Both the position numbers and the translations under genes were made by a program. Below are positions 234-58,532 of a DNA stretch of 64,000 nt, piece by piece (within the stretch, counting starts at the first letter, position 1; every line of letters begins with the position of its first letter). The notes beneath the pieces are model-generated. The model ran no database searches. It was not told where the DNA came from and worked only from the letters and a program-made list of their open reading frames with translations. The stretch covers positions 53,636 to 117,635 of the forward strand of contig JAUCBJ010008130.1 of assembly GCA_032718475.1 (NCBI GenBank), in the 5' to 3' direction. The DNA is from Nemertoderma westbladi. Its lineage: Eukaryota > Animalia > Xenacoelomorpha.

Positions 234-635
234 AAGGAGATCGGTTTAAACCAAAGTGATAAAGTAACATTATTATATAACATAATCATATAGACAAAGT
301 AGAATAAGATACAGATTCATAATTATTTTATCAAACTCATGTACTACTTACTTCAATGTGCCAATTGTAATAATAATTAAACATATTATTCAGATTAATC
401 TGCGTTTGGCCCTATAAGATATTATACTGACGTATTTTATATTATTATATCCATCCGAGTAAACAAGAAGTGAAGTAAATGTTTATTATTATAGTTTTAG
501 AAATTGAATGATATACCCAAGATAGTGAAATAGATAATATACCAGAAATTGCGAGTGAACCCAAAAGTGAAAACTATCTCGTTGAAAACGACAACGTGTA
601 GCCGAATTAACGAACTTGAATAGATTTGATCTCCA

Positions 636-14453: not shown

Positions 14454-14604
14454 ACTACTACTACTACTAGGATCGGCATGCTGCATTGCAGCTGCATTTT
14501 TAAGAATGCTGTGCCGGCTTATCGACAAAATTGCACCGCCACAACTCCCTATCACCCATGACATTTGCTAGATCATCCGCATCTTCAAGGCCAGTGTCCT
14601 TTAA
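14454..14604 (-). mobile_element. RTE-clade LINE 3' fragment with (TAG)n tail
   Basis: Reverse complement nearly identical to ~38118-38260 (…TTCTTAAAAATGCAGCTGCAATGCAGCATGCCGATCCTAGTAG). Confidence 0.85.
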
Positions 14605-24031: not shown

Positions 24032-24053
24032 ACTTGATTACTGTAAGAATGGT

Positions 24054-25767
24054 TGACTGACTGACTGACTGACTGACTGACTGACTGACTGACTGGCTGG
24101 CTGACTGGCTAGCTGGCTGGCTGGCTGACTGACTGACTGACTGACTGACTGACTGACTGACTGACTGACTGACTGACTGACTGACTGACTGACTGACTGA
24201 CTGACTGACTGACTGACTGACTGACTGACTGACTGACTGACTGACTGACTGACTGACTGACTGACTGACTGACTGACTGACTGACTGACTGACTGACTGA
24301 CTGACTGACTGACTGACTGACTGACTGACTGACTGACTGACTGACTGACTGACTGACTGACTGACTGACTGACTGACTGACTGACTGACTGACTGACTGA
24401 CTGACTGACTGACTGACTGACTGACTGACTGACTGACTGACTGACTGACTGACTGACTGACTGACTGACTGACTGACTGACTGACTGACTGACTGACTGA
24501 CTGACTGACTGACTGACTGACTGACTGACTGACTGACTGACTGACTGACTGACTGACTGACTGACTGACTGACTGACTGACTGACTGACTGACTGACTGA
24601 CTGACTGACTGACTGACTGACTGACTGACTGACTGACTGACTGACTGACTGACTGACTGACTGACTGACTGACTGACTGACTGACTGACTGACTGACTGA
24701 CTGACTGACTGACTGACTGACTGACTGACTGACTGACTGACTGACTGACTGACTGACTGACTGACTGACTGACTGACTGACTGACTGACTGACTGACTGA
24801 CTGACTGACTGACTGACTGACTGACTGACTGACTGACTGACTGACTGACTGACTGACTGACTGACTGACTGACTGACTGACTGACTGACTGACTGACTGA
24901 CTGACTGACTGACTGACTGACTGACTGACTGACTGACTGACTGACTGACTGACTGACTGACTGACTGACTGACTGACTGACTGACTGACTGACTGACTGA
25001 CTGACTGACTGACTGACTGACTGACTGACTGACTGACTGACTGACTGACTGACTGACTGACTGACTGACTGACTGACTGACTGACTGACTGACTGACTGA
25101 CTGACTGACTGACTGACTGACTGACTGACTGACTGACTGACTGACTGACTGACTGACTGACTGACTGACTGACTGACTGACTGACTGACTGACTGACTGA
25201 CTGACTGACTGACTGACTGACTGACTGACTGACTGACTGACTGACTGACTGACTGACTGACTGACTGACTGACTGACTGACTGACTGACTGACTGACTGA
25301 CTGACTGACTGACTGACTGACTGACTGACTGACTGACTGACTGACTGACTGACTGACTGACTGACTGACTGACTGACTGACTGACTGACTGACTGACTGA
25401 CTGACTGACTGACTGACTGACTGACTGACTGACTGACTGACTGACTGACTGACTGACTGACTGACTGACTGACTGACTGACTGACTGACTGACTGACTGA
25501 CTGACTGACTGACTGACTGACTGACTGACTGACTGACTGACTGACTGACTGACTGACTGACTGACTGACTGACTGACTGACTGACTGACTGACTGACTGA
25601 CTGACTGACTGACTGACTGACTGACTGACTGACTGACTGACTGACTGACTGACTGACTGACTGACTGACTGACTGACTGACTGACTGACTGACTGACTGA
25701 CTGACTGACTGACTGACTGACTGACTGACTGACTGACTGACTGACTGACTGACTGACTGACTGACTG
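24054..25767. repeat. (GACT)n microsatellite, ~1.7 kb, nearly perfect
   Basis: Read directly; a few GGCT variants near 24095-24125. Confidence 0.98.
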
Positions 25768-27888
25768 ACCAATAAAGACACAAACTGCTCTATTTTCTAG
25801 ACGGGGCAATCAGGAGCGTATAATTACTAATGTAGGGTTCAGGTACAGAAACCCACTACTTACCGTTGGATGGCTCTAATCTGCCGTCCGCTAATATATT
25901 TTACTAAATTTCTACGACTCCTTCTAAATTCTCGTTCCTTTCTCTACCAATTGCTCGATAGAGAGCTAACTGTTCGAATATATGAGCCACGCGGGAATAA
26001 CCAAAACAATAAACCCGAATCGGCTCCCTAAGCTGACTTAAAACGAGTGTGAGAGATTTGACACTCAGAGTGTATTCTATAGCCTAATATTACTGTAAAA
26101 TTGCGCTTACAACTACGTCCTTTCTAATCGCATCTAATCGCAATACTGGGGTTCCCTAACGGAATGTGTGAATGTGAGAATATTTAAATAATCAAAAAAT
26201 TGATGCAGCGTTTATTTTGGGACTCAGCCTTATCTGCGGCTGGCTTTAGGCCAGCAATTTACTGATGCGCGCTGCGTACTGTATACTACGATGTGAATTT
26301 TGTCCGCTAATTCAAATAACTGCCCAGCGTGAATAGTGTACGGTACTCTAAATTTATTACCTAACTACCCTCCACTATGCAGCGTACAAATTCTTAATTT
26401 TACTAATTAATTTCAGTCACAAATATGTAACGGCGTACTAATTACTAAGTATTCCAGAATGCGTAATTCTAAATTATTACGCAACGGGTCACACTAGCAA
26501 CAGCCTAAAATACCGTATTATTTTCGACCTAATCAGAAATTAATTACAGTAAGCTAAGAAATAGAAATCAATCAAAGGGAAAGAGCACCTATCCAAGCAT
26601 TCGTGATTTATTAGGCACACTTTAGTAACGCACCAATCAGCATTCAAACAACAATCGCAATCTACAGTTTAGCTAGCAATTCACAACTCGCAACTCGCAA
26701 CTCGCAACGTAAAGGATGCAGATCTCTCCCGGCTACGTCTAGGCTTCCTAACTAACCCAATTCCCGTCCCCCTAATACTACAAAATAGAGACAAAACCTG
26801 GATCATCAGCCCCTAATTGCCGAGCCGGCGTACCTGACCCACTCTACGCTGCAACTTGCGCGCAATAGTAATCCCCCCAATGTTGCTTGTCTTTGAATCC
26901 TCCGCACTCCCGTCGTCGCTAACCCCCCGATGCGCCCGCCACGCTTACCGGTACCCTAGCCCTCCATCAGAATGAGTAGCTACCGTAGCGGCACATGCAA
27001 ATCACAAAGGTCTGACAGTCTGAGAAATCCCGTAGGATTATTGTCGAAAGAAATCACATAGAACCATTTACTAAAGGGTAGAAATCATAGTTCCAACTTG
27101 TAATTAACAGCGATCATTGAGATTGATTGAGAAACACAATAAGAATCAAACAGAAATTGCAAATTTACGAATCATTGCAAGAAATCAAAAAAGGGCAGTA
27201 ATTTACACAGAAAAACTAAGCATCGAATAATAGTTGAAGGTGAGCTGTGTGGGGTGTGGTGGATGACTAAGGATGTGTAAGCTGTGCAGACAATGGAAGT
27301 ACGCCAATTTATAGGTGATTTGAGAAGGGTGATGCAATCGATCTCTCATTGGCTCCCCAATCCGAGCTAACATTAGACCAGCCTGGAAGCAGTTAGGCCA
27401 ATAAGAGAGCCGGATTGTGGGCCTATAGCTCCCTGAAATCGTAAATTGCCACCATATAAGGTAATTTTCCCGATGCTTAATTTGGCGGTACTAATAATAT
27501 CATCCACAAATATAAATTTAGCGCAATTATAGAGAAATTAAAACCAATAGCTAGCCTCATCAAGGCTAATAACGGCAAGCCCAGATCCAGGGTCCAACAA
27601 GGACTTGCTACCCTGGAACTATCTACTTATATCCTATTACAAAACTACATAGGTAGGGCTACATACTATACAAAATGGATGAGTTCAAAATATATGGGCG
27701 TTTCAACTTCCTTATCTAAATATCATTGCGCATTATGCCTTATCTAAATAATTATACTGCATCACGGACTAATATATGATACTATATAATGAACTAATAT
27801 ATTATACTGTATAATGGACTAACATTATTATACTGTATAACGGACTAATATATTACGTAATGTAGGTACAGCGCCATATACCATAACA
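25768..27888 (-). repeat. 3' LTR of element B (2121 bp)
   Basis: Begins TGTTATGG on the minus strand after GGAGCGG; ~17 substitutions and 3 indels versus the 5' LTR. Confidence 0.92.
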
Positions 27889-28394
27889 CCGCTCCAAGGG
27901 AAATCATGCAATGTTTCCCTCCAATTGTAGAAGAGTGTAAGGCGATGTATACAAAATAAAATAAATCTCCTTCAAATAATCTAAATGTCTTGATACTATA
28001 CTATTTACAAATATTGCCATAGATATTGCATAATGAATTGCATACAAATTAAATTTACAAAACATTATCTCTCTCTCAATGTTAACGATTATTACATACA
28101 AATTAAATTTACAAAAATACTGTTTCTCATTCGTTCTACATAATGATTACTACATACAAATTAAATTTACAAAAATACTTTCAAATTATAAAATTTTGCT
28201 AGAGTAGGTGAAAGGAGTAAGCCAAACCCGCAGGTTTGTCTCCCCAATCACCTCCTTCGCCTCTCTCATAATATAAATCCAAATCAGTGCGACTAGTGTA
28301 TATGAGTCAAGTCGGATATTTACAAATGCTACAATATACATCAGAGCGACGATGATGTATATATCTAGAGTCTGTCGCCCCGTGATACGATGCA

Positions 28395-29003
28395 TTACTG
28401 ACCCGCTCCTGGGTTCTTCGGGCTCGCTCCTCTCTTTCGCCCCCTACCCAGATACACCAATCGTCCTCCAGTTGACTCCGTTGACGTGGTCCGTGAGGCG
28501 TCACTCCCCGGAACCGGCGACGATGTTCCCTGAGCTCCGACAGATACCCGGCTCGTGCTTCGTCCTCGGCCTCGTCCCAATGGTCGTGCTCCTGTGGTCG
28601 CTTCCGCTAACTCTTCCTTCTGCAATTGCATGCGCGCCTTCTCCGACGCACCCTGCGCCTTGCGTTGCAATCTCTGTGCCTCTATAATCGAGTGATAGTG
28701 GTCGTCCTTGACTTGACGCTTGTCTTGGACCTCTCCTCCTGGTTCCTTCCGTGAGCCTTGAGCTCCAACGGTCGTCGTTGTGGGCGCTGCGGTTCGCTGT
28801 TCCTCGATCCTCTTAGCGGTCAATGACCCCACTGGTACGTGAGTCAACAGGAATTCGTTGCGGTATTGAATAGCCGCCATCCTCCAATCTCCTCGCGCGC
28901 GCACCACTTTCCTAGTTTCCGAAAACAAACCCTTTGTAATACGGTCGCAAATAGCAACAAAGTTCCAAGTGTACTTGTTGTCCATATTTAGTTGTCTGAA
29001 GTA
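28395..29003 (-). CDS. In-frame continuation of the accessory ORF after a single TAA (basic, RG-rich tail)
   Basis: TAA at 29006-29004 is followed by six sense codons, then the 196-aa ORF in the same frame. Confidence 0.55.
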   Translation of the reverse strand, partial: YFRQLNMDNKYTWNFVAICDRITKGLFSETRKVVRARGDWRMAAIQYRNEFLLTHVPVGSLTAKRIEEQRTAAPTTTTVGAQGSRKEPGGEVQDKRQVKDDHYHSIIEAQRLQRKAQGASEKARMQLQKEELAEATTGARPLGRGRGRSTSRVSVGAQGTSSPVPGSDASRTTSTESTGGRLVYLGRGRKRGASPKNPGAGQ

Positions 29004-32000
29004 TTACCGAACGACTATGACTCCAGTGTTCTGTGGAAGGTCTTGAGCGGTTAGGATGAGCTCCTGATATTGTGGTAGCGACTGTAGATATGGCTCGTAC
29101 GCAACATGTGATGGGTCTACCGCCCAAAATCCATATCCCGCCTTAAATGGTAACCAACGCATCTGCGCTTGAATGTGGTAGTCAGCCACACTCTCCCACT
29201 TATCTAGCATCTCCCGAAGTAGGTTAGCGCTATGGTTCTGGAAGGAATCGTCTCGCAGTTGGCATCTCGCGCTACGATGTCCCTTTACTCCACAATATCC
29301 ACATTGAGAAATGAAAACGGTGCACGTATGAAACGAATGGTCGGTCTCATTGCACCAACGGCAGACCTTATGCGCCGCCTCCACTACCGCGTCGCACGAT
29401 TTTTGATTGTGCCTTGTGCTGCCGCACAACTTGCACCTACGCGCTTGTGGAAACCAGGCCCTCTCGTATATGAGGTCTCCAATCGGTTTCGCACTTCCTT
29501 CTTTCCCAATGTCTAATACGATGTCGTCCTCTCCGGTCAGCGGTTGTCGATCCGGAACGAAGTAAACATCCTCGCCCTTGTCCTCTATCTCCAATATTTC
29601 CTCCCGCGTTCGTTTCGGATATGTCTTCTCCACCGGAAGATCTACTCCAAACACCTCTACTAACGTCTCCGGCCAACCCTCTCTAACAGGTCTATCAGCC
29701 TCCGAGTGGAAGGGAGTACCAAACCCGCGGGTTTGATTCCCGAACCACTTCTCCAAAGCTTCTGGCATCGGATACTCCATCGACGGTCGGTCTCCCAAAT
29801 CTCCGATATTCTGTCGATATATCCCTTCGAATATTGCTAATCCTCTCCTAACCAACGATGTATTCTCTAGCGATTGGTTGAAGAACGGGGTTAAGAAACG
29901 CTTCATCACGTCGGATTGGATTCCCCCTTTCGAGCGAACGTATTGATCTCCTCCGAACACCAATGGATGACGCTTCAAAACTCGCGCAACGATATCCGCT
30001 AATAAACAAGTTACCGTGTTCGACTCAAGCACCAAATAATATTGTAGTGACGCACGGGGTGGCGCGCATATGTTCCAATACACTAACGCTTGCCGCTTGA
30101 AGTGGGATTTGAACTCCACTCCCGGTGGCGTGTTATATTCACCATACGCCTCCTTGTATTTCTTCTGCGTCTTCAACTTGAAGTCCCAATTATACAATAA
30201 ATGTGCTATGAAGCCCATACCAGTCTTGGCAGAGTTGGGATACTCCCTATAAATTCCCATGTTTTGTGCCCATAGCAACAATAGCTTGGTGTCGACAAAC
30301 GGTCTCGGCAATCTATCTTCTAAATCAGTCATGGCGTTGAAGTCACTCTCCAAATCACTCTGGACTCCCGATCCCACCTTGACGTAATCTTGGCTAAGAA
30401 TCGCCTCTCTAACCTTCTTGGGTAGCATCCTGGCGTCGATACGCTCCGCTCCGTGCATACCTCCTCGCCTGCATACCTCCAAAATCTGTTCCCTAGGATC
30501 CTTCCCCTTCCGATATTGTGTCGTGATTATGGGCTCCAGTCTCTCTCTATCCGCTCTTACGCGCATAAACACATGAGTCACACCATCGGCCGCGCGAATT
30601 TGAATGCACTTACTAGTCAAGCATTCCTGATGAGACCCTCCTTCATCCTCGTCGGATGGGGTCCACATGCGCTCGATAGCCTTGTGGTCGTCATATCGGG
30701 TGTAAGATCCCTTTCTCCTCAGCCACGCCTGGTCTACCTCCTCGTCATCTGGGAATGTAGCCACTGCGACCCATACCTTGATGTACTTGTCTAACCATCC
30801 AAATAACTTGCTCTCTTTTCCCGGAGCTCCAATCTTGTCCAAAGTGTCGTAGTCTGTGATCTGTATCGGGACATCACGCAAGAACTTCACGCATAAAACT
30901 TCCCGTAGACAGTCGACGTTCCAATGATCCGACATCCTCACCATCGGCAAGAATCTAATCGCTTCTCGCGACTCCGGGTGATCTACCAATATTGCAGGTT
31001 CGCTACCGTCGGAATAATACACCGGTCGGGGTTGAGATACGGCCTGTGGAACAAATCCGGTCACTCTCCTCGTCTCCTCTTGATGTCTATCCGCGGTCTT
31101 ATTATATTCCGCTATCCGCGCTTCGAATAATTGTTTCGCTTTCGCCGCTCGCTCCTCCTGCCGCAACGCGTCTATGTCGTCCTGATGCTCAGGCGTGAGA
31201 GCTCTTGCTCGGTGAGGCGAAGTAAACGTAGTCCAGGGACTCGAGAGCTCCAAACCCGCAGGTTTGGTACCCGAGTCGCGTGCTGCTTCGCGCCGCGCCT
31301 CTAGGTCCTTGTAGGCTCGGTACAGCGAAATGGCCGCTGCTGTCTCTATCAAACTGGGTGTCGAACAGGGTTTAATCTCCGTATACGGATCTAAAGTCGT
31401 AACGGTCGGCGTAACGGGTCTTGGAGGTTGCTTTCCGCTGAAGTCGATACTGATCATCGGGTTGCTCATTGGGTAACCTCCCTCGTTATATCTAAGGAAC
31501 TGGTGAGCTTGGCATCGCGTTAATATCGGTTCGGGATGTTGCTCGTCCAATCGGTCGGGAATCGCCATGTCTTGTTTGTTCATGCATTCTCCACATTTGT
31601 AGAACAACTTGTATACACTGAAGACCTTCGACGTCTCTTGATTCTCGCCTCGAGTCCTCCGATACAGATGCATTCCGTCGAACTGATCTCGGACTGCAGG
31701 TAGCGGCTCTTCGTGTCGTAAATACATATTCATGTGGTACAGCCGCGCAATCTCCCCATCCGGGTCTGCGCTAATGTCGCACACGTCTAACGCGAAATCG
31801 TAGGGATACCGAGTGCGATACTCTTTCCGCAAAACTTCCATACGGTCCCCCAACGCTCTCATTCTTTCCCTCCTTAACTCTTTATCATAAGCAGGTTTAT
31901 ATTTCCCATTTAGCTCCATCACCGACCTCCCGTGGTAGTACACATTCGAATCCTTGCCTCCTGGTCGGGCAAATGGCAGCTCCGCCTCCTCTCTGGCAGT

Positions 32001-32039
32001 AAATCCTCTCCGCAGTTGCGCTCTAATTTCCTTCTCCAT
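29004..32039 (-). CDS. Accessory ORF of element B: DEDD (WRN/Mut-7/EXD-like) 3'-5' exonuclease-like domain plus three CCHC zinc knuckles
   Basis: CIQIRA..LPKKVREAILSQDYVKVGSGVQSD..FVDT..GMGFIAHLL..K..W..LQYYLVLE; CKLCGSTRHNQKSC, CRWCNETDHSFHTC, CGYCGVKGHRSARC. Confidence 0.8.
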   Translation of the reverse strand: MEKEIRAQLRRGFTAREEAELPFARPGGKDSNVYYHGRSVMELNGKYKPAYDKELRRERMRALGDRMEVLRKEYRTRYPYDFALDVCDISADPDGEIARLYHMNMYLRHEEPLPAVRDQFDGMHLYRRTRGENQETSKVFSVYKLFYKCGECMNKQDMAIPDRLDEQHPEPILTRCQAHQFLRYNEGGYPMSNPMISIDFSGKQPPRPVTPTVTTLDPYTEIKPCSTPSLIETAAAISLYRAYKDLEARREAARDSGTKPAGLELSSPWTTFTSPHRARALTPEHQDDIDALRQEERAAKAKQLFEARIAEYNKTADRHQEETRRVTGFVPQAVSQPRPVYYSDGSEPAILVDHPESREAIRFLPMVRMSDHWNVDCLREVLCVKFLRDVPIQITDYDTLDKIGAPGKESKLFGWLDKYIKVWVAVATFPDDEEVDQAWLRRKGSYTRYDDHKAIERMWTPSDEDEGGSHQECLTSKCIQIRAADGVTHVFMRVRADRERLEPIITTQYRKGKDPREQILEVCRRGGMHGAERIDARMLPKKVREAILSQDYVKVGSGVQSDLESDFNAMTDLEDRLPRPFVDTKLLLLWAQNMGIYREYPNSAKTGMGFIAHLLYNWDFKLKTQKKYKEAYGEYNTPPGVEFKSHFKRQALVYWNICAPPRASLQYYLVLESNTVTCLLADIVARVLKRHPLVFGGDQYVRSKGGIQSDVMKRFLTPFFNQSLENTSLVRRGLAIFEGIYRQNIGDLGDRPSMEYPMPEALEKWFGNQTRGFGTPFHSEADRPVREGWPETLVEVFGVDLPVEKTYPKRTREEILEIEDKGEDVYFVPDRQPLTGEDDIVLDIGKEGSAKPIGDLIYERAWFPQARRCKLCGSTRHNQKSCDAVVEAAHKVCRWCNETDHSFHTCTVFISQCGYCGVKGHRSARCQLRDDSFQNHSANLLREMLDKWESVADYHIQAQMRWLPFKAGYGFWAVDPSHVAYEPYLQSLPQYQELILTAQDLPQNTGVIVVR

Positions 32040-32795
32040 TATTAGCCACGTATATACATATATATCCCAATAAGGTTCCGTTACGTAACTAATTACACTG
32101 TGGGTAAATCAGTTAGATGTCGCCGAAGGACAGACCTCTTGAGCCCCCCCCCCCCCGCCTTACAGCAGTTCAGGTTCGACTCTCTAGATCCCGTCTCATT
32201 CCTAACTATCCTCTAACCTATTCCCATGCATAGCGCAAAACTTTGGAGGTAAACTGGCCGTGACCAACTCACTTTTTGATGCCCAAACTACTCCCATTAC
32301 TTGTACTAAACTACAGTAGTTAGAAAGGACCATAATCTCAATGCTCGACTATACCAAACCCACAGGTTTGATAATCGAACATCACACTTCACTGCAAACT
32401 ACTGAGTGGGGTCCGCTACGCCCTGGTGCTACTAACCTTTAGCACCTTAGTTGTACTGCTGGCACCAATCTGTGGAAGTTGCTAAACTCAATTTACACTC
32501 CTACGTAATATAGCCGTCACCATGGTTTCTAAATGCTATTTTCCAGGCTTCACGACTTTTCAAATTACTGTTTATCTATAGACGGATTCTAAAACACGTC
32601 TATACACAGCGTCTGGAATTGTCTTGGGTTCACTTCTAATTTTTTAAAATTTTTTAATTTTCCAAAATTTTTGAAATAAAATTTTTGTTTTGATACCCAC
32701 CAGACAAAACTCAACGCAATCACCACAAGCCCGCTCCTATGCATTTCCTTGTATTTGCATACGAGGAATGCATACGAAGTGAGTTGCGTCCAACA

Positions 32796-35700
32796 CTAAT
32801 TTTGTTTTGAGGCAGGAGATAAATTATAATCTCCTGTCTCGATGCGTGTCTCTTTTAATAACACGATATCTTGGACCGGTCGGTCCAAGGTGTGTAAACC
32901 ATTAGTTTTACACTTCTTTGGGTGCGGACACTTGCACCTAATTTTCACAGTGACTGTGCGCACTATGTTTTGCACGTCTGGGTGTATATGCAAGATAACT
33001 CCCGTCTCCCAGTATTTTCTCTTGACAATCGGTTCGGTTATCAATACGTAATCTCCCCTTTGGAGACTCCGAACCGTTTTGTACCACTTTGTTCTGGTAG
33101 ATATGGTGGGAAGATAGTATTCCCGCCAATATTCCCAGAATGTGTACGCTACGAATTGTGTCACTTTCCAGCTCTTACGACTATATAGGTCGGCACTAAT
33201 GGGTTCTGATGCCGGCACAAGAAATGCTGGACTCTGCATTAGCAAATGATTCGGCGTTAATGCAACACCGTCTGGCAACATAGCTATCGGCCTTGAGTTT
33301 AATGTATGCTCGATTTCGATGAAAGCTGAGACCAGTTCGTCATCGGTAAGTTGTTTGTTCACAGGCAATGTTTTGGCAATGGCCTGCTTTACAGAGCGAA
33401 CTAAACGCTCCCAACTTCCTCCTCTCCAAGGACTTTCTGGAGTATTGAATCTCCACTCTACTCTTTGCGGCAAAAGTGCTGCAGAAATTTCTTTATTCTG
33501 TGCCGCTTTATGAGCCGCGTTCAACTCGCTATTCCCTCCGACAAAGTTTGTACCCTTATCGGAGTAGAACGCCTTTACTAGTCCTCTCCTGGCCATAAAT
33601 CTCTTTAAGGCCAGGAGCAGAGATTTGGTCGACATGTCTGCCACACGCTCGATGTGTATGGCTCTACTAGCCATGCATGTCAGTAGCAGACCCCATCGCT
33701 TGTGGGTCAGCCGTCCACTCTTTGCCTCAATCGGACCAAAACAGTCCACCCCTGTGTTCGTAAAGGGTGGGTCATATGCCTGCACTCTCACTTCCGGGAG
33801 TTCAGCCATCTCCTGTTCCAATACTCTGGCGTTCACCCTCTTGCAAACCAGACAGGCGTCATACATAGTGCCTACTGCCCTGCTTGGCTGCAATAGAGTG
33901 AATCGCTGTCTCGCTGCCGACAAACAGTGTAACTTTCCCGCGTGATGCAACCTCTTGTGTATATCCCATAGAATCGCTCTTTGCAATTCTATTGGGTGAC
34001 TAGGGATTATCACTGGGAACCTAAACTGTGAATTTATGTCAACAGTCTGGATTCTCGATCTATGACAAATAAACCCTTATGGATTAATGGACTCCATTTT
34101 CTAAGGGGTTTATAGAGAACTGGTCGTTGAGCCGATAATAGATAGAATTCTTTTGGGAAGGCACACATTTGATAATGCTTCAAATGCTTTAATTCCGCTT
34201 GATCAATCTCATCCTCTGTCAGAGGTTGTTTCAATTTCCGAATTTTCTCACTATTAGTGCTCATTTGTTCTCCTAAATGTTCCGAATGTTTTAAACAAAG
34301 GTACGAAATGTATCGGCTTAACCACGCAGTTCTTTTACAAATTGTCAGCCAAGAGGCAGACGAATTTAGTAATTTGTCATAAATACTACATGGCTCTAAT
34401 GCCAGCAACGGTTGTCCGCTAACTATTGGAAGTTTCGAATCCAAACCCGCAGGTTTGGAAACCAAAGGCTCCATTTTGTCGGTCATTTTCTGTCCGTCAC
34501 TTACCAACTGTGACTCCGGTTTAGTCTGTAAGGGTGGTTTTATGTCATAACTTACCCTTCCTGACCTAGTAGTCACGTAAGTCTGTAGGTCTGACAGGTC
34601 TCCGGGCCGCTCCAATGACTCTTCAGGCCGCTCCAATGACTCTTCAGGCCGCTCCAATGACTTAAGTTTGGCTTTAGACTTCGACTTAGAGACTTTCTCC
34701 ACCTTGACTTCTGCATCTTCAGGCATCGGATTGGTCACTATCTTTAGTCGCTCTGGCCAATGTTCCTGTGTCCTTGTTAGAAAATCAGGTCCATGCAACC
34801 AAAACTCCTGCGACTCTTCCTGACAGAATTCCGCCGGCATTGCACCTCTCGAAGTTATGTCGGCCGGGTTCAACACTCCCGGACAATGTCTCCATTGTTC
34901 ATTCGTCGAAAAGTCGACGATCTGAGCGCGTCTGTTGGCCACAAATGTCTTTAGTGCAATATTGTCGGCCGCAATGTATACTAACACTAAGGATACGTCC
35001 GTCCAATAGAATAAGGTCAATGTCGTGTCTAATTCCTCTGTTATTTGCTTACTTACCTCGACTGAAACTACAGCCGCCTGTAACTCTGCACGAGGGACAG
35101 TTATGTATTTGACCGGCATTGTCTTTGATCTAGAAGTCACAAAAGCCATCTCAAACTTGTCCTGACTCAACTCTCGGCGAAGGTAGGCTACCATACCAAA
35201 GCCGGTGTGACTTGCGTCACTAAATAAATGGAGTTCGAGATGAGCTGGGAATACCAGCTGATTCGGAAAGTAGGAACGGGGTACATCTATATTTTTCAAT
35301 AGATGTAACTCGGCTTCCCACTCTCTCCACTGCTTTGCATGTATAGGAGATATTGGTTCGTCCCACTCTAGGTCGGACAACCAAATTTTCCTCATGCACG
35401 CTCGTGCCTGTAATATTACCGGACTGATAAAGTTCATTGGGTCAAATAGTCTACTTAACATCGATAAGCAAATTCTCTTTGTCAAAACTTTGTCTGGGCT
35501 ACTGGGCTCAAATCTAACTCTTACCTGAAATTTATCCGTGTTCGGATTCCAAGCGAGTCCCAGTACTCGCGCCAAGGGGATGGGTTCGCTAATAGGGCCT
35601 CCGAATTCGTAGTGAACTTGGTCAGAGGGAAACCCCCTGTAGCCAAGCACTCCTGCAGGCCGTGAGCCACTTCTATGGCTTGTTCCGCTGTGTCCTTGGA

Positions 35701-37702
35701 CACCAATCCGTCGTCCATATAGAAGTTTCTCAAGATGGACTCGATGACTTCTACTGGATACTTACCAATCTGGGCTGTTGCCGTTTTCTTTAGAACAGAC
35801 AGCGTGCCGTTTGGACTATCGCGGGCGCCAAATATCCTAACGTACATTTGGTATGTAACCACTGGGCCGGATAAGTCTTCTTTCTCGTACCAGAGAAATC
35901 GAAGGCTATCCTGGTCTGCCTTACAGGCTCTTACCTGGTGGAACATCGCCTCGATGTCACAAGTGAATGCGAATCGCCGCTGTCTAAAACGCAACAGTAT
36001 TCCTATCAAATAGTTATTCAGGTTGGGTCCATCCATCAACTCTGAATTCAGGGACATACCTCTATAGACTGCTGCGCAGTCGTTGACTACTCGGACTTTG
36101 TCAGGTTTGTCAGGGTGAGTCACATAGTGGTGTGGGAGGTAATAAGTCTGGTCTGTCACTAAGTCAGGGCCTTCTACCTTCCCAGCAAATCCCTTGGCGA
36201 AATAGTTGTTGATCTGGGCGCAATACTTCTCCCTAATGTCCGGATTCTTTAACAACCGAGCCCTTACTCCATTCAATCTTTTCAAGGCTAAGCTGTAGTT
36301 GTTCTCCAACTTAGGAGGTTGTCGACGCCACAACATTCCAACTTCAAAATGTCCAGTCGGTAGCAGACGTATGGTATCTTCCATCATCTCCAGTGACCGT
36401 TTCTCATCAGTAGACATAGCTAGGTCATATCCACCGGGTTCCATTGCGTCCCTATCCAGCCATTCGACGGTTCTGGCTCCTGACTCGAGGTCCTGGCGTA
36501 TCAATTCCTTCTGTAGCTCCTCCTCACTGTATTGGAAAATGTCTAGGTCTCGATATTTAGCCACTTGACCCTCCACTATGTTGGTATAAGTCAAAACGTT
36601 ACTCAAATAGGTAGCGTGGGCCGCTGAACCAGACCCACGGGTCTGATAACAGTAGTCCTCGGGTTCACTATCTGTCTGGTCGTTGTGAAGTGGTCCGACA
36701 ACCTAACATTATCGGGAATCAACTCCTCGTCCGACTCGCTAAAGTCACTATAGTGGTCAATACAGGTTCTCCTAAACTCGTCTATGTCTGGTGGTTCTAC
36801 TAACGGTGGTTGAGTTATAGGCTGTAATTCGTCGTATCTGTCTATTGGCTTGTCGCCACCTGTAAACTCATAAGACATGGGTACTCTTGTATACCAACCT
36901 AGTATGGTCCTATGGGCATGTGGTCCATTGACATGCGGCTCAGCTGGTCTCGTTTCCCATATCTGGTGTGCGATCAGCTGTTCTGCACCAATTAACATAG
37001 AAACATTCCTATAACCTACCTGGTGTCTCGGTATTCTGAGCTTGTCAAAATACTCCTGTGCTATGGGACTCATCGGCGGCACCTTACCTAACTGCCTGCC
37101 GAATCCCTTCATAGCTAGACACTTAAATCCGTCCAATGGCAAAGCTTTCCGTTCTTGTCGAGTATGCTGGTCTCTTGGAAGTAGGGAGTCTAGTTCCACC
37201 GAAATTCTGTGTCCCTTGAGGTCTCCTACCCCGTGCATAGACTTGAACTCTATTTGGATCTCCTCGGCGTCCTGGAAGCTAGAAACGGCTCTCGCCACTT
37301 CCTCGTCGATATATGATAATGTGGACGCAGTGTCCAACATCACATATATTCGCTTCGATCCCTTATCTCCAGTAAGCTTCACCGGAATCACGCTAAATAT
37401 TTCCGACGTGGCCGATGATAAATACGTCCGCGCGCTGGTCGATGAACTATCCGCAGTGAAACCTTGGCAGGTCACCTCTCTTGCGCTCAACTCGCCATCC
37501 TCGTCCGACGAACCTGGTTGATAACCATCGTCCTGAATGCCGGTATACGTATTTCTTCTTATCGATACGGGTTCTTTGCTCCCCTTCCTTTGAGGATTTC
37601 GCTGTAAGTAACGGTCCGTTGGGGTATGGAAATCCGCATGTAGCAACTTGTGATGTAGTCTGCCGCATTCCATGCATCCGTCCTTGCTGTTCGGGCACTG
37701 CC
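32796..37702 (-). pseudogene. Element B PR-RT-RH-IN, broken by frameshifts/stop
   Basis: MLDTAS protease; CDIEAMFHQ..FYMDD RT; FSDAS..NPAD RNase H; GVDCFGP, SDKGTNF, GSWERL integrase; breaks near 36605, 35575 and 34034. Confidence 0.93.
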
Positions 37703-37712
37703 GTCATACATG

Positions 37713-38270
37713 GCATGGGCAGCCTTGAATAGGCTTTCCAGGATTTGGAAGTCACCTAGAATTAATCGGAAACTTAAGGTCCGATTATTTAGAGCAGCAG
37801 TAGTTCCAGTACTCCTCTACGGGAGTCCATGCTGGGCTCTAACTGCTGAGGACACCAAATCTCTGGATGGCACATTCACAAGAATGCTACGCCGGGTACA
37901 TTGTGTCAAGTACAATGCACACATCTCCAACCAGACACTATATAACATTGGAGGTGTCTCATTGGTTCCCCCAAGCTTGACACTAGAACAAAATCGCCTC
38001 CGCTTTGCAGGACATTGCTTTCGCCGTGAGGACCAGCCAGTGCATAATCTTGTACTTTGGCAGCCTCATGGAGTGAATAAGCATGGTGGACAGCCCATGA
38101 CTTTCTTGAGACGCATCTTAAAGGACACTGGCCTGGAAGATGCGGATGATCTAGCAAATGTCATGGGTGATAGGGAGTTGTGGCGGTGCAATTTTGTTGA
38201 CAAGCCGGCACAGCATTCTTAAAAATGCAGCTGCAATTCAGCATGCCGATCCTAGTAGTAGATCCTAGTA
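37713..38270 (+). mobile_element. 5'-truncated RTE-clade LINE inserted in the Gag knuckle of element B
   Basis: LKVRLFRAAVVPVLLYGS..RLRFAGHCFR..DRELWR RTE C-terminus, TAG-repeat tail, 10-bp TSD GTCATACATG (37703-37712, 38271-38280). Confidence 0.93.
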
Positions 38271-38345
38271 GTCATACATGACCTGGCGCAAGACATGCCC
38301 AACAGGTATCCAACGTCCGCACTTGAACTCTTCTCTGTTCCGAAT

Positions 38346-41300
38346 TTAATTTTTGAACCGTCTGCAACTATCTAACTTATGGTCGTCAGATCTTACCTCC
38401 TTTAGTAAACAGTATTGGCAACCTACAAATCCATCCGGCAACCCCTGTTGCTTTAACCTAGGTCTATCTAACCGCTCACCTGACCATACTCGCGAGTCTG
38501 ATCTAAAGGCTGGGGTACTCGAATTATATCTGTCTACTGAGTTAAATGTCACAGTGGTCCTGTCATCGTCAAAACTTACCATAGACTTACCGGTAACAGG
38601 TTTAGACTCTCTCATATTCTCCTCTGAGAAGTTTGATTTCATCTCTGCTACTGCGTCTGTGACTATCATGTCATGAATATGCTGAAGTGTCAATACTTTA
38701 CCTTGGCCCTCCAACTTATTCTCTAATTTGCGCCATTTCTGTCTGTAACGCATGTTTAAATGTCTTATTACGCTCTTTAAAACTTCGGCGTGATCACCAT
38801 GATGAGGTAGATTCACCGTCCTCAAGATGTCCAACGCGTTCGAAATAGCGTTCGCTAAGTTCAACAGCTCTAACGGAGTTGTAATCTTTCCGCCCTTACC
38901 CAAGTCTTCTACTATCAACTGTGCCATCTTGGTTTTATTCCCGTAGATGTCGCTAAGCGTCTTCATTGCTAACTCGAATGCTCTTTCATTGCCAACGAAG
39001 TTGTCAGCAATGGCTCTAGGTTCTCGATGGAGCATTTGAAGCAAATAGTTGAACTTCTCGTTGGGAGTAAAGGTGCTGTTGGTTAGCTGCTCGTCGACAT
39101 AGGTTTTGAAAGTCCTCCAATGCTTATGGTTGCCCATAAACTTCTGGGGTTGTTGCGTCGGCAGTCCTTGCCTTGCAGCAAACTTACCTATGTCCCTAAG
39201 GGTTGCGTCGTTCTGGGTTAACAAATGGTTTAGTTCTGCAGGGTTGTTAAGTCTGGTCCTTTCCCGGGGATTGAGACTTACCTGCTCCGCGTCCGTCCTT
39301 CTTTCCTTATAGTTTCGGGACTTCTGACGTCTCATGTCTTCCTCTTCATCACTTGATTCGGTGTCAGTCCTTAGCGCTCGCGTTGGTTTGCGTGCCGAGG
39401 CCCTGACCCAAACATCTTGTATAAACTTTTCGGCTGAGTTTTCGAAATTGGGATTATGGATATTCGGGACAGGCGTCCTTACCTGAGGTCTATGTGGTAT
39501 AGTCTCCTCCGATATGCGTACTCGTTGACTAGGTTGGACTTTATCTAACTCAGGCTTGCTAGGATTAGAATTACCTCTTACCTGGGCTGCTTCCTTTAAC
39601 CGTAGGTTGCTAAGCATGTCCGTTATAGGTTGGATGTGCGGTGATATAGCTTGCGCTAAACTAGCACTTAACTCATCCCTCGTAATAAATTCCTGGCTAG
39701 GGTTCTGTTGTATAGTCGGCTCTATCTGAGTAATCCGCTGTCTCTCATATGATCCCTCTTCCGGTTTAACCCGGAAGTTCTCCGTCGAACTGGGTCGGCG
39801 CTCCGTCCGCGTATTCCAAACCCGCGGGTTCGGTTCGCCCAATACTCGGCCTGTCGGAGTTTCTCTAAACTCTTCGTTCTCGCGTTCCATGTATAGTGGT
39901 GCGGTGCGATGATGCGCTGGATTCTGCGTGATAGGTGAAGCACTAATACCAACTGGCGTGCGATATGTAGAGAACGGTTTAGCGATCCGTGTACTCGTAA
40001 TAGCTGGACCGGGTATAGGAATTCTGGTCGTCATTGACTCGCGTATGGTCGGAGTTCTCGCTTCCTGTTCGGCCTTCTGCAGTGCGAACAGTTCTCGCAA
40101 CTCAGTCCCTACACTCGCCCCACATTCTTCGATCATTCGCATCCCCTTCTCGGCGATTTCATTCGCCTTCCTGGTCCGTTCCTCGCTCTCTAGGTTTAAT
40201 CTCGCACTTTCCAACTGCGCCAGTTTACGTTCTTCTTCTTCCCTCGCTCGTCGTGCTGCGCTCTCTTCTTCCACACGCGCCTTCTCTTCATACAACGCTC
40301 GTCGCTCTTTCTCGATCTTGAGTTCGCGTTCTTTGCGTTCGCGTTCCTTGCATTCGCATTCAAGCTCGAGTTCGCGTTCTTTCTGTTCGCGTTCAAGTTG
40401 GAGTTCGCGTTTGCGTTCCTTGCGTTCGCATTCAAGTTGGAGTTCGCGTTCCTTGCGTTCGCATTCAAGTTGGAGTTCGCGTTCCTTGCGTTCGTGTTCA
40501 AGTTGGAGTTCGTGTTCCTTGCGTTCGCGTTCCGCTTGCTCACGCTTACTTATTTCTTCCAACTCTCTCAACTTCGCGTCTAACTTACGTGTTCGCTCCC
40601 TTTCCCGCTCGGCTTCCTTCCGTGCTTCCGATGCACACAAAACTTCCGCCTGCTGTTCATCCAGTCGGCGTCTTCTCTCCTCCACCGAGTTGTGAGAAAC
40701 AAGGGATCTAGCACATATAACTTTACCTCGTGCGTGACTAACATGGGAATCGCCACTGTCTCTAGATGCATCATCGGGTGGAGTTAACGTTCTCTGCTGG
40801 ATGTTCTCCGTCGTCGGTAGCACCTGGCCCGGTACCACCACTCCACTCTGCATCAGCCAGCTGGTAACTTCCCGCTGATACCTGCGCTCCTCCTTATCCT
40901 GCGTTTCTTCCCGCTCCACTAAATTTCTCAACTCTGCGTCACTCACCTGAGTCGCCTGCGCTTGTGATGCCCATAGCAGCCAGTTCTCCGTCCTAACTCG
41001 TCGAAATCGCTCCGATAATGCGCGGTGCTCCAACAAGGCTGCTAAAACCCTGTCGTAAATCCTCGTCGCCACGTCGCTCGACTGAGACTCTACTGCCTTC
41101 TTTGCTAGGACTGCAAGCTCCTCCGTCTGTTTGAATAACGCTGAGTTGTATCCTTTTCTAATCTCTACTAACCCTTCCCTTCCGATGTTCGCTGAGTCGG
41201 CTAACATCTTCCTTACCTTGTCCGCCGTCCGGGTTATATGTCCGGCATGCGCGCGAAGTTTCTTCTTTATCGCGATATCAAGTTCTCTCTCGCTTACCTG

Positions 41301-41693
41301 ACTCACACTTGGTGGACTTGAAGGATTATTTCGGGAACTAAGGGTACTCCTTACAGCCGCTGGGACCACGGCACTTACCATACCCACAGGTCTGGAAACC
41401 GGGCTCCGGGCTCTCGCTTCTGCTACACTACCCTCCCTATCACTCACCTCTGGTTGGGTTGTAGTACAATCCTTCCTTACAGTAGCGGTAGGGGATCCTA
41501 ATACTATTACCTGAGGTTGCTGTTCTTCCTCACTAGTTACTGTCTCGTCCTCCTGTTCACTTACATCAGCGTCACTCACTGCGTCGTCATAGTCGGCATT
41601 GTCGTCAACAGTAATATTAACGCTATCGTCAGTCGGCGGTCCTGCCGCCGTCTCATAGCTGTCCTCTAGTGCCTCCTTCTCTGAGACACTCAT
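38346..41693 (-). pseudogene. Element B Gag (1115 aa up to a frameshift/stop)
   Basis: Coiled coil with 33-bp ERELQLECERK repeats, DUF1759-like KFMGN..W..F..EKFNYL, Cys/His knuckles continuing in another frame. Confidence 0.88.
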
Positions 41694-42850
41694 AGTCTAA
41701 ATAATATTTGCCTTCCGGCAAAAATATCTCGCAAAAGTTCGAGATATATATATAATTTAATCGAAATGCGATTAAATTATTGTCAAATATCCAATTGTCC
41801 AAAATGTCAAAATAAATTCGCAATGCAATATTGTGAATTTAATAGGATCTAATTTTAGCAAATACCAGTACAATATTTAAACAAAATATTATTCTATAGT
41901 TATTATATAGTATTTAAATACCGGTATGACACAAATAATTTTTTGAATCTAATACAAAATATTTAAAATAAACTTGCCACCTGAATATTTCTAATTTTAC
42001 ATAGATAACTCTAATCAACGCAATTTTGATTTCAAATATTATATGTATCCACTAGCGCGTGGCTACATCTTCGGGTTGCGACTCTCTCTCTCTCTAACTC
42101 GAGCGATTCAAAAACCCATGGTCGGCTAAACCTAACTATCCTAACTAATAAATTGAGTTCAGCTTCGCAGTTAAACAACCGATAATTTTTTACTGCTTCC
42201 ACAAACACAATGGTGCCAACAGAACAACTAACCTTGTTTGCTGTGAGATTCCACGTCCGCGTCCAAAGTTTCAGTCCTTTCGCTGATTGCAAACCGAACC
42301 CGCAGACCCACACGAACCCCAAACTCAGAAGCTCCGTCTTGCCATGTATCTCCAGATGGTATAAAATAACTAAGCGGTTATCCAACATACCGGTACAAAA
42401 CTCTAGATTTTATTACAAAATAATTTTGACCAAAACTGAATTCTCACAAACCTAGCTAAAAATTTCAAAAAACTTACTAATTACGGCCTGCCCTAACGGC
42501 CTAAGGAACCGCTGTATCTGCGATTAGTAAACGCACTACCGTATATCCACTGTATGCAATACAGTAAGTAAAACAGTACACCAACCTAACAGCCTAATGA
42601 ATACTGTGTGCGGTACACCAAAACAAATGTCCTTTCTACTTGTACGCAGTAACAGCAATCAGCCTAATGTACTACTGTACTATTGTACGCGACCAGTGAA
42701 TACAGTAATCTAAACTAACAGCCTAAAGGAATACACTCGATGTTCTACTGTACGCAGTACAGTGCCTAATACTGTGATCTAATTCGTACTTACTGTACGC
42801 AGTACAGCAAACAAAGCATCCTTTACTGTTAAACGAACTACCCCAGCCTA

Positions 42851-44978
42851 ACCAATAAAGACACAAACTGCTCTATTTACTAGACGGGGCAATCAGGAGC
42901 GTATAATTACTAATGTAGGGTTCAGGTACGGAAACCCACTACTTACCGTTGGATGGCGCTAATCTGCCGTCCTGCTAATATATTTTACTAAATTTCTACG
43001 ACTCCTTCTAAATTCTCGTTCCTTTCTCTATCAATTGCTCGATAGAGAGCTAACTGTTCGAATATATGAGCCACGCGGGAATAACCAAAACAATAAACCC
43101 GAATCGGCTCCCTAAGCTGACTTAAAACGAGTGTGAGAGATTTGACACTCAGAGTGTATTCTATAGCCTAATATTACTGTAAAATTGCGCTTACAACTAC
43201 GTCCTTTCTAATCGCATCTAATCGCAATACTGGGGTTCCCTAACGGAATGTGTGAATGTGAGAATATTTAAATAATCAAAAAATTGATGCAGCGTTTATT
43301 TTGGGACTCAGGCTTATCTGCGGCTGGCTTTAGGCCAGCAATTTACTGATGCGCGCTGCGTACTGTATACTACGATGTGAATTTTGTCCGCTAATTCAAA
43401 TAACCGCCCAGTGTGAATAGTGTACGGTACTCTAAATTTATTACCTAACTACCCTCCGCTATGCAGCGTACAAATTCTTAATTTTACTAATTAATTTCAG
43501 TCACAAATATGTAACGGCGTACTAATTACTAAGTATTCCAGAATGCGTAATTCTAAATTATTACGCAACGGGTCACACTAGCAACAGCCTAAAATACCGT
43601 ATTATTTTCGACCTAATCAGAAATTAATTACAGTAAGCTAAGAAATAGAAATCAATCAAAGGGAAAGAGCACCTATCCAAGCATTCGTGATTTATTAGGC
43701 ACACTTTAGTAAGCACCAATCAGCATTCAAACAACAATCGCAATCTACAGTTTAGCTAGCAATTCACAACTCGCAACTCGCAACTCGCAACTCGCAACGT
43801 AAAGGATGCAGATCTCTCCCGGCTACGTCTAGGCTTCCTAACTAACCCAATTCCCGTCCCCCTAATACTACAAAATAGAGACAAAACCTGGATCATCAGC
43901 CCCTAATTGCCGAGCCGGCGTACCTGACCCACTCTACGCTGCAACTTGCGCGCAATAGTAATCCCCCCAATGTTGCTTGTCTTTGAATCCTCCGCACTCC
44001 CGTCGTCGCTAACCCCCCGATGCGCCCGCCGCGCTTACCGGTACCCTAGCCCTCAATCAGAATGAGTAGCTACCGTAGCGGCACATGCAAATCACAAAGG
44101 TCTGACAGTCTGAGAAATCCCGTAGGATTATTGTCGAAAGAAATCACATAGAACTATTTACTAAAGGGTAGAAATCATAGTTCCAACTTGTAATTAACAG
44201 CGATCATTGAGATTGATTGAGAAACACAATAAGAATCAAACAGAAATTGCAAATTTACGAATCATTGCAAGAAATCAATAAAGGGCAGTAATTTACACAG
44301 AAAAACTAAGCATCGAATAATAGTTGAAGGTGAGCTGTGTGGGGTGTGGTGGATGACTAAGGATGTGTAAGCTGTGCAGACAATGGAAGTACGCCAATTT
44401 ATAGGTGATTTGAGAAGGGTGATGCAATCGATCTCTCATTGGCTCCCCAATCCGAGCTAACATTAGACCAGCCTGGAAGCAGTTCGGCCAATAAGAGAGC
44501 CGGATTGTGGGCCTATAGCTCCCTGAAATCGTAAATTGCCACCATATAAGGTAATTTTCCCGATGCTTAATTTGGCGCTACTAATAATATCATGCACAAA
44601 TATAAATTTAGCGCAATTATAGAGAAATTAAAACCAATAGCTAGCCTCATCAAGGCTAATAACGGCAAGCCCAGATCCAGGGTCCAACAAGGACTTGCCA
44701 CCCTGGAACTATCTACTTATATCCTATTACAAAACTACATAGGTAGGGCTACATACTATACAAAATGGATGAGTTCAAAATATATGGGCGTTTCAACTTC
44801 CTTATCTAAATATCATTGCGCATTATGCCTTATCTAAATAATTATACTGCATCACGGACTAATATATGATACTATATAATGAACTAATATATTATACTGT
44901 ATAATGGACTAACATTATTATACTGTATAACGGACTAATATATTACGTAATGTAGGTACAGCGCCATATACCGTAACA
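42851..44978 (-). repeat. 5' LTR of element B (2128 bp shared portion)
   Basis: Begins TGTTACGG on the minus strand; matches 25768-27888. Confidence 0.92.
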
Positions 44979-45300
44979 GACTGACTGACTGACTGACTGA
45001 CTGACTGACTGACTGACTGACTGACTGACTGACTGACTGACTGACTGACTGACTGACTGACTGACTGACTGACTGACTGACTGACTGACTGACTGACTGA
45101 CTGACTGACTGACTGACTGACTGACTGACTGACTGACTGACTGACTGACTGACTGACTGACTGACTGACTGACTGACTGACTGACTGACTGACTGACTGA
45201 CTGACTGACTGACTGACTGACTGACTGACTGACTGACTGACTGACTGACTGACTGACTGCCTGAATGACTGAATGACTGACTGACTGACTGACTGACTGA

Positions 45301-45345
<45 letters not shown>

Positions 45346-45727
45346 TGACTGACTGACTGACTGACTGACTGGCTGGCTGGCTGACTGACTGACTGACTGA
45401 CTGACTGACTGACTGACTGACTGACTGACTGACTGACTGACTGACTGACTGACTGACTGACTGACTGACTGACTGACTGACTGACTGACTGACTGACTGA
45501 CTGACTGACTGACTGACTGACTGACTGACTGACTGACTGACTGACTGACTGACTGACTGACTGACTGACTGACTGACTGACTGACTGACTGACTGACTGA
45601 CTGACTGACTGACTGACTGACTGACTGACTGACTGACTGACTGACTGACTGACTGACTGACTGACTGACTGACTGACTGACTGACTGACTGACTGACTGA
45701 CTGACTGACTGACTGACTGACTGACTG
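44979..45727. repeat. (GACT)n microsatellite with GGCT/GAAT variants
   Basis: Read directly; separates divergently oriented elements B and C. Confidence 0.98.
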
Positions 45728-57974: not shown

Positions 57975-58532
57975 CCCTATTAGTACCGGGCTATAAAATG
58001 TTCTACAAATACCGGGGGGGGGGGGGGGGGGGGGTCATATTGACCCCTCCTCCCCTCTAAAATCTACAAATTTTTACGAAAACGTCTGATTTTTTGTTTG
58101 CACGTAGGTATCACTAGTCTGGATCCGACCGAAAAAAAAAATTTTCGAAAAATATACTGGGGTGGTTATATTGCAGCACCAAAATTACAAGTAGTGCACA
58201 ATTTTCACAAAATTTGAAAGTTACTTTTTTCGGCTAATTGTTTTTCAATACAGGTTTTCTGGGGCGCAAAATAGATTGGAAAATATGTAAAAATGAATTA
58301 GTTACTATAAATGGCAGTTTAGTCCTCTCTGCGTAGGAAAAAATGAAAAAAACAAGTAACCAGCACTTTTCAGTTTGAACACAAAATTTTTAATTCACTT
58401 ATACGATGCTATAAATTCACATTTTTAGGTTTTCTTGGGCGCTGATTCTAATGAAATACATTTCTAATATGCCAGATCATTGCAACTTGTATTTTTCGGC
58501 GTAATTTGGCAAATTTTGGTGCTAAAATTGCT
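57975..58532. mobile_element. piggyBac-like non-autonomous element end
   Basis: TTAA|CCCT terminus and GGGGTCATATTGACCCC subterminal palindrome; other end not seen. Confidence 0.45.

Follow-up and report, generated by a model that had tools for sequence, protein, structure and literature searches.

A BEL/Pao retrotransposon of Nemertoderma westbladi with an exonuclease-like, triple-zinc-knuckle gene in the env position and an array of predicted hairpins

We analyzed a 64,000-nucleotide stretch of DNA from Nemertoderma westbladi (contig JAUCBJ010008130.1, positions 53,636 to 117,635; hereafter, the window) and, within it, a long terminal repeat (LTR) retrotransposon that we call element B. Element B is a BEL/Pao retrotransposon of 19.2 kb on the minus strand. 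Between pol and the 3' LTR it carries a third open reading frame (ORF3), whose protein joins a predicted exonuclease fold of the DEDDy/RNase D type to three exact zinc knuckles. ORF3 is under purifying selection, and eight copies of a putative hairpin are scattered along the element, from gag to the 3' untranslated region. Our preferred reading, which is tentative and falls short of an even chance, is that ORF3 encodes an RNA adaptor, similar in action to Egalitarian or CERV, that binds these hairpins.

An exonuclease-like and triple-knuckle protein encoded behind pol

A sequence-only reading of this DNA had described a 1011-codon frame in sense orientation between pol and the 3' LTR and, as it saw no transmembrane segment, had argued that this was not env. 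Both points hold. ORF3 starts 756 bp past the integrase stop codon, and its frame closes 506 bp before the 3' LTR. The top 19-residue hydropathy window scores just 1.34, so there is no clear transmembrane segment, and amino acids 334-1011 had no match to env-type fusion proteins in Pfam, in PDB, or by fold. These observations support the conclusion that ORF3 is not env. Amino acids 1-330 had no match in any search that we ran.

The three knuckles, which begin at amino acids 869, 893, and 913, fit CX2CX4HX4C exactly, as the sequence-only reading had claimed. When the ORF3 protein was shuffled, one knuckle arose in 6 of 20,000 trials and three knuckles in none, and just one further knuckle of this form occurs in the six frames of the whole window. 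Using phmmer against 1.84 billion representative proteins, we found eight relatives of ORF3 at E ≤ 0.001 (P0001 to P0008; 514-727 amino acids; 26-32% identity). These come from ENA, Logan, JGI, and NCBI, and the only name that any of them bears is "hypothetical protein." All eight share the layout of an exonuclease-like part, three Cys/His knuckles (with spacing variants in some), and a C-terminal motif. A profile of seven relatives, built without ORF3, matches amino acids 535-697 of ORF3 (E = 9e-27; the best of 500 shuffles reached 4.4 bits), and hhalign aligns the relatives with amino acids 538-995 of ORF3 at 99.75%. The family profile also matches the knuckles of Lin28 and of retroviral nucleocapsid. 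In Pfam, the relatives have only weak matches, such as PF01612 in P0002 (E = 0.2). The sequence-only reading had inferred a captured RNA-processing factor. Our results do not show a recent capture from a host gene of the EXD/Mut-7/Nibbler type: the closest proteins are the eight unnamed ones with the same layout, so the fusion of exonuclease-like part and knuckles is probably older and more widespread than element B. In one relative, P0001, the triple-knuckle block is present twice and the exonuclease-like part is decayed, with both ExoII and ExoIII lost; the knuckle block may thus be able to persist without an active site.

Identifying the middle of ORF3 required structural comparison. Single-sequence searches of Pfam and PDB with ORF3 gave nothing significant. 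Word-index protein searches gave nothing either, but this was a weak test, as the method also missed members of our alignment that were present in that collection. ESM Atlas features placed ORF3 in PF01612 clusters at 0.90 (148 features), which we treat as a lead only, and P0002 at 0.94 (179 features). A single-sequence fold was uninformative, with a predicted local distance difference test (pLDDT) of 32.7. We then used AlphaFold to model amino acids 334-1011 from a 9-row alignment of ORF3 and its relatives: the mean pLDDT was 44.7, with values of 50-70 in the exonuclease core and the knuckles. In VIA-align, all 50 of the listed rows have DEDD-superfamily domains. The best is the EXO domain of Nibbler (Z = 10.9; root mean square deviation, 3.9; 183 residues aligned), followed by RNase D (Z = 8.6), Exd1 (8.2), Trypanosoma brucei RNase D (8.2), and Egalitarian (7.6). 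Identity in structural alignments to the cellular DEDDy enzymes (T. brucei RNase D, Nibbler/Mut-7, EXD2, and the WRN exonuclease) is 8-12%. In Foldseek, no row reached E = 0.001; the top row is the WRN exonuclease (E = 0.035), and nearly all rows are DEDD proteins. Finally, the family profile matches EXD2 with E = 5.5e-5 if ORF3 is included and with E = 9.6e-4 if it is not. Since the model was built on the alignment, the fold and profile evidence are partly dependent. Taken as predictions, these comparisons support a DnaQ-like fold of the DEDDy/RNase D type for the middle of ORF3, which is the identity that the sequence-only reading had proposed.

The motifs on which that proposal rested are all in place: CIQI (at 30608), LPKK..VGSGVQSD (30425), FVDT (30299), GMGFIA (30221), and QYYLVLE (30044). 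The ExoII aspartate is D562, in VGSGVQSD, as had been noted; it is kept in seven of the eight relatives. ExoIII had been called degenerate, but it reads Y668-x3-E672, with glutamate likewise in P0002 and P0006, which are the two relatives whose best match has the longest exonuclease stretch; the other five relatives with this motif have aspartate. The putative ExoIII of ORF3 therefore looks like a shared YxxxE variant rather than a decayed motif. ExoI is less clear. As the sequence-only reading had remarked, no canonical motif (a hydrophobic strand with DxE) is found in amino acids 330-560, and the N-terminal half of ORF3 scores -0.1 bits against the relatives' ExoI profile. The register of ExoI differs among three alignments. 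One alignment and the VIA-align ranges place the end of strand 1 at an acidic run, D463-E466. Divergent contigs (see below) skip amino acids 464-466 or cease matching there. Among the relatives, P0002, P0003, and P0005 to P0008 have the canonical DxE; as for the exceptions, P0004 begins downstream of the motif and P0001 has DxK. Judging by these residues, the family looks largely catalytically competent, and the lineage of element B, in which the sequence-only reading had seen a possible pseudo-nuclease, looks to have a non-canonical ExoI.

To compare copies, we aligned public contigs on window positions 25800-42800, in 30 bins. The contigs are from three studies of organism A (X1, X3, and X5) and from organism B (X4), and they cover 30, 30, 28, and 29 of the bins, respectively. 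The family of element B is abundant in organism A, and contigs at 83-85% identity span ORF3 and its edges. The stop codon that ends ORF3 in element B (29004-29006) lacks support in 5800 of 5988 depth units, from 11 contigs, in X3 (X4 has no coverage there). Because this stop is not common to most copies and 202 open codons follow it, the family protein probably has about 1213 amino acids, and the frame in element B would be a copy cut short. This longer frame was not part of the sequence-only reading, nor was the hairpin array.

Across these contigs, there are no insertions or deletions at a share of 15% or more over 28940-30900 (1961 bp). We tested for selection with 39 of the best-supported 40 of 107 listed differences (the stop-codon difference was excluded). 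Twenty-nine of the 39 are at third positions, and 28 are synonymous; of the rest, 9 are nonsynonymous and 2 were undecided and counted as nonsynonymous. Without selection, 31.5% would be expected to be synonymous (p = 2.8e-7; omega is roughly 0.18). ORF3 is under purifying selection. By region, the synonymous share is 9 of 9 in the knuckles and C-terminal motif, 5 of 7 in the linker, and 14 of 23 in the exonuclease region, so the putative RNA-binding end looks to be the most constrained part. The summed depth of ORF3 is about one-third of that of pol in X1 and X3; depth is not copy number, but it implies that not every relative of pol has a close ORF3 (80% identity or more). Some contigs are deletion derivatives that skip parts of ORF3 (30230-32154 and 31564-31894). 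A nested DNA transposon around ORF3 was ruled out, as a repeat search found no terminal repeats. The recurrence of ORF3 in many copies, together with this and with purifying selection, supports the conclusion that it is a stable component of the family rather than a one-off nested insertion.

A predicted hairpin array along element B

The repeat search that was aimed at the termini of a nested transposon brought up a palindrome instead. CAAACC-N4-GGTTTG has five exact sites in the window, where 0.01 would be expected. With the pattern widened to take in three near copies, there are eight sites, all on the sense strand and all within element B, at a spacing of 1.1-3.2 kb (Table 1). The putative hairpin has a CAAACC/GGTTTG stem and a YGYG loop. 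The sites lie in gag, in pol, in ORF3, and in two non-coding stretches, and they occupy reading phases 0, 1, and 2. Because all three phases and non-coding DNA hold them, the hairpins appear to be kept as nucleic acid; an origin at the protein level was ruled out on the same grounds.

In an alignment of the eight sites, 81% of the cells pair, and 8 of 14 pairs are altered on both sides. This covariation score was reached by none of 500 shuffles, and every slid control was lower. The four best hairpins have folding z-scores of -5.0, -3.7, -3.6, and -2.6, and the other four are weak. A covariance model found a possible ninth, weaker hairpin, which falls in the widest gap of the array; the best score outside element B was 11.9 bits. 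The sites could instead be a palindromic DNA-binding site. This is disfavored by the strand-specific loops, a G-U wobble, and the paired changes in the lower stem, which favor a single-stranded structure.

Rfam 15 gave no matches over 25765-44978 at E up to 1. Two sites in element C, another BEL element in the window, have two mismatches each and were rejected, as they lack the loop and fold poorly. In viral contigs the pattern occurs at seven loci with one match apiece, which we treat as chance. Neither element C nor element A, a further BEL element, contains a relative of ORF3 or these hairpins. Element B also has three AT-rich repeats of 39 nucleotides in its 3' untranslated region (28029-28179), directly after hairpin 8.

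Table 1. Features of element B, in the order of its sense strand (window positions)
Feature	Position	Strand	Remarks
5' LTR	42848..44978	-	About 2.13 kb; TG start directly after (CAGT)n array; inner end only approximate
gag-pol, BEL/Pao type	32796..41696	-	At least 6 open pieces in this copy: DUF1759, protease-like LDTAS, reverse transcriptase YMDD, Peptidase_A17, Integrase_H2C2 and DUF5641
Hairpin 1, in gag	41378..41394	-	Pattern site
Hairpin 2, in gag	39816..39832	-	Pattern site
Possible ninth hairpin	38483..38502	-	Weaker; closing pair altered on both sides; covariance model 14.2 bits, E = 0.055
MITE-like insertion in gag	37707..38274	.	High-copy; 568 bp; skipped by contigs from X1, X3, and X4
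Hairpin 3, in pol	36629..36645	-	One stem pair altered on both sides
Hairpin 4, in pol	34441..34457	-	Pattern site
Hairpin 5, pol-ORF3 spacer	32354..32370	-	Folding z = -5.0
Candidate splice acceptor (CTAAC ... CAG)	32098..32116	-	59 bp ahead of ORF3 ATG; from sequence only
ORF3	29004..32039	-	ATG to TAA; 1011 amino acids, open in this copy
Hairpin 6, in ORF3	31250..31266	-	Pattern site
Predicted DEDDy/RNase D-type exonuclease fold	29877..30719	-	Amino acids 441-721; ExoII D562, conserved D583, ExoIII Y668-x3-E672, acidic run D463-E466
Hairpin 7, in ORF3	29719..29735	-	Pattern site
Three zinc knuckles, CX2CX4HX4C	29262..29435	-	Amino acids 869-926
C-terminal motif (helix, A, G-aromatic, Y)	29055..29222	-	Past the knuckles; common to all 8 relatives
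In-frame extension past ORF3 stop	28395..29003	-	202 further codons; Arg/Gly-rich; last 80 amino acids have an isoelectric point of 11.8
Hairpin 8, 3' untranslated region	28222..28238	-	Folding z = -3.7
3' LTR	25765..27888	-	Outer end merges into (CAGT)n array

What ORF3 may do

If ORF3 is an RNA adaptor for the hairpins, its mRNA would be spliced or subgenomic, and the candidate splice acceptor may be used to make it. The surface of the exonuclease-like domain would bind the stem of the hairpin, and the knuckles would bind the G-rich loop and its flanks. By analogy to Egalitarian and CERV, this binding might serve to export the genomic RNA, which is about 17 kb long, or to transport or protect it. 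Nuclease activity would then take second place. The catalytic residues are retained by most relatives, and ExoI in the lineage of element B seems to be non-canonical. A broader form of this idea, which we consider somewhat doubtful, is that element B contains a self-contained trans/cis module, in which an Egalitarian-like ORF3 and the element's own array of 8-9 hairpins route a 17-kb RNA without an envelope, and that the unnamed family spans retroelements of several hosts.

Several observations weigh against the adaptor. The structure model is of modest confidence, and its pLDDT is below 50 across the ExoI region. The hairpin structure and the wider pattern were derived from the same eight sites; just four of the eight have z-scores below -2.5, and two of the eight have another minimum-energy fold. 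The co-occurrence of ORF3 and hairpins is seen in one of the three elements with a visible 3' part (element D is cut by the end of the window, and C is perhaps truncated). The would-be ORF3 mRNA contains three of the eight hairpins, which is a misfit to strict Rev/RRE logic. We sought the genomic context of the eight relatives in viral, metagenome, and genome contigs and found none; nor did we find further contexts of element B there. And the retention of ExoI in six and of ExoII in seven of the eight relatives fits an active nuclease.

Such a nuclease is an alternative that we regard as rather unlikely: during replication, ORF3 would trim the ends of the element's RNA, primer, or cDNA as a 3'-5' exonuclease, with its knuckles as a tether, and the lineage of element B would either use a non-standard acidic ExoI or be a decaying branch of the family. 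ORF3 itself keeps D562 and Y668/E672, and the acidic run falls where one alignment and the VIA-align ranges put strand 1. T. brucei RNase D (PDB 7C42) also couples this fold with CCHC knuckles, and the ORF3s of rotifer elements retain catalytic residues (PMC5408684). However, the canonical DxE was not found and the ExoI profile score is negative, divergent copies vary at the very residues of the acidic run, and the exonuclease region shows more amino-acid change than the knuckles do. Another alternative concerns the hairpins, which, being dispersed, could equally be explained as packaging signals for Gag that have nothing to do with ORF3; ORF3 would then be a general RNA chaperone or a second nucleocapsid for a very long genome. 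The even spacing of the hairpins and the resemblance of the knuckles to those of retroviral nucleocapsid and Lin28 would fit, but elements A and C have Gag without such hairpins and the retention of an exonuclease fold is left unexplained, and we consider the combination unlikely.

The sequence-only reading had also suggested a role in countering small-RNA defenses, for which we found no direct support. Such a factor would mimic Nibbler, Mut-7, or Exd1 and bind or trim piRNAs or their precursors; the nearest folds do include Nibbler and Exd1, and organism A has the family in abundance. But the differences in Z among DEDDy rows are small and uninformative about function, selection is strongly purifying rather than positive, and the flanking domains of Nibbler/Mut-7 were not detected with Pfam, which makes this quite improbable. 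The notion that ORF3 is a mere passenger, with no function for the element, whether it came as a captured host gene or as a nested insertion, is largely refuted, and we give it hardly any credence. Its low depth relative to pol and the deletion derivatives are what one might expect of a passenger; the purifying selection, the lack of insertions or deletions at a share of 15% or more over 1961 bp, the lack of flanking terminal repeats, and the hairpins that run through ORF3 are not.

Known systems, the surrounding window, and significance

Genes of this kind have a precedent. RNase D-like DEDDy ORF3s are described in the Juno and Vesta LTR retrotransposons and the Athena/Terminon retroelements of bdelloid rotifers (Rodriguez et al. 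2017, PMC5408684), and two reviews repeat this (PMC5718144, PMC6431247). Like ORF3 of element B, these are separate DEDDy frames past pol, in the place of env and inside the LTRs, with no transmembrane segment or coiled coil, and one catalytic aspartate is replaced by glutamate (PMC5408684). The hosts differ: the rotifer elements are Gypsy-like, whereas element B is BEL/Pao. ORF3 of element B has over 1000 amino acids, three CCHC knuckles, a C-terminal motif, and a basic tail, none of which appears in the text that we consulted on the rotifer ORF3s, and a hairpin array is not described for the rotifer elements either (PMC5408684).

Two other proteins serve as comparisons for how ORF3 might work. 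In Drosophila, the EXO domain of Egalitarian binds bulged stem-loops; its catalytic residues are dispensable, and one of its targets is the signal of the I factor retrotransposon (10.1101/2025.08.03.668247). It has the DEDDy fold that is predicted for ORF3, but the comparison is one of action; and Egalitarian is a host gene with links to BicD and dynein, has no knuckles noted in that source, and is not the best fold match. CERV of Cer1, from C. elegans, is needed for the export of genomic RNA (PMC10309623). It too is an accessory protein of an LTR retrotransposon that has a pseudo-enzyme domain and a Cys-rich, putatively RNA-binding part. However, Cer1 is a Gypsy element, and CERV is spliced from the gag region and is G-protein-like rather than DEDD (PMC10309623), and homology to ORF3 is not expected. 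T. brucei RNase D (PDB 7C42/7C45) has the DEDDy fold, and 7C42 is a CCHC-type domain protein that matches both parts of ORF3. It, Nibbler/Mut-7, EXD2, and the WRN exonuclease are cellular enzymes, and we saw no sign of direct descent from them to ORF3.

For BEL elements, the word "exonuclease" is absent from the main text of a BEL/Pao survey (PMC3118150) and of PMC2774666, and the accessible parts of PMC554778, PMC9094657, and PMC11662393 show no exonuclease for BEL elements. The sequence-only reading had known of no BEL family with such cargo. That stands insofar as the literature that we searched has no BEL/Pao frame with exonuclease and knuckles and no such hairpin array (supplements, Repbase, and GyDB, which were outside this scope, may note such frames), but the type of cargo itself had been described in the rotifer Gypsy-like elements (PMC5408684). 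Thus, a DEDDy gene in the env position was already known; the BEL/Pao host, the triple-knuckle fusion, and the co-located hairpin array we did not find in print. Nematode BEL elements of the Cer type are said in early papers to carry an exonuclease domain, which our literature searches did not show.

The rest of element B is that of a BEL/Pao retrotransposon. In Pfam, the frames upstream of ORF3 match DUF1759 (E = 1e-8), Peptidase_A17 (3e-39), DUF5641 (1e-17), and Integrase_H2C2 (2e-5); the domain order is that of Pao-type gag and pol, protease-reverse transcriptase-RNase H-integrase, with a YMDD reverse transcriptase motif. The triple Cys-His box of Gag had no match in the six open gag-pol pieces that we scanned, where gag is interrupted. 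The two LTRs are identical at all but 18 of the 2123 bases aligned, which makes the insertion a young one, and because (CAGT)n arrays touch both outer ends, any target-site duplication is hidden. Compared to the ICTV profile of Belpaoviridae (PMC8742986), element B shares the gag-pol domain order, the LTRs, and, with some members, a third gene after pol. But the profile gives 4.2-10 kb for the elements, 0.2-1.2 kb for the LTRs, and only env-like third genes, and element B, with 19.2 kb and 2.1-kb LTRs, is well above these ranges and has a third gene that is not env-like.

Within the window, the BEL-type elements B, C, and D each start with TGT directly after a tetranucleotide microsatellite of the GTCA/GGTC type (24050-25764, 44979-45727, and 58530-59560). 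B and C stand back to back on one microsatellite array, and the 3' end of B adjoins another; microsatellite-targeted insertion of these elements is possible. Element A (630-8477) has an uninterrupted BEL/Pao gag-pol frame of 2615 codons, with no relative of ORF3 behind it. The long N-termini of gag contain low-complexity, charged repeats resembling coiled coils in elements B (40332-40549) and C (50010-50193). A partial second copy of the insertion in the gag of element B, which resembles a miniature inverted-repeat transposable element (MITE) and is of very high copy, lies at 14448-14604. An open frame of 555 codons (12900-14567, minus strand) has a weak match to Ulp1/C48 proteases (E = 0.058) and is perhaps a DNA-transposon remnant. 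There is also a near-perfect inverted repeat of 466 bp (99%) with a 277-bp spacer at 9638-10845.

The function of the third genes of LTR retrotransposons is mostly obscure if they are not env, and in the literature that we searched, the rotifer DEDDy ORF3s have no assigned substrate. ORF3 of element B extends the arrangement of a DEDDy gene in the env position to BEL/Pao and defines an unnamed family of proteins with exonuclease-like and knuckle parts. Element B also offers a candidate for its RNA target, 17 to 50 nucleotides in length, so that the function of the gene can be approached by binding and nuclease assays. The answer would bear on the export of very long retroelement RNAs, on their germline transport, and on what protects them against small-RNA pathways.

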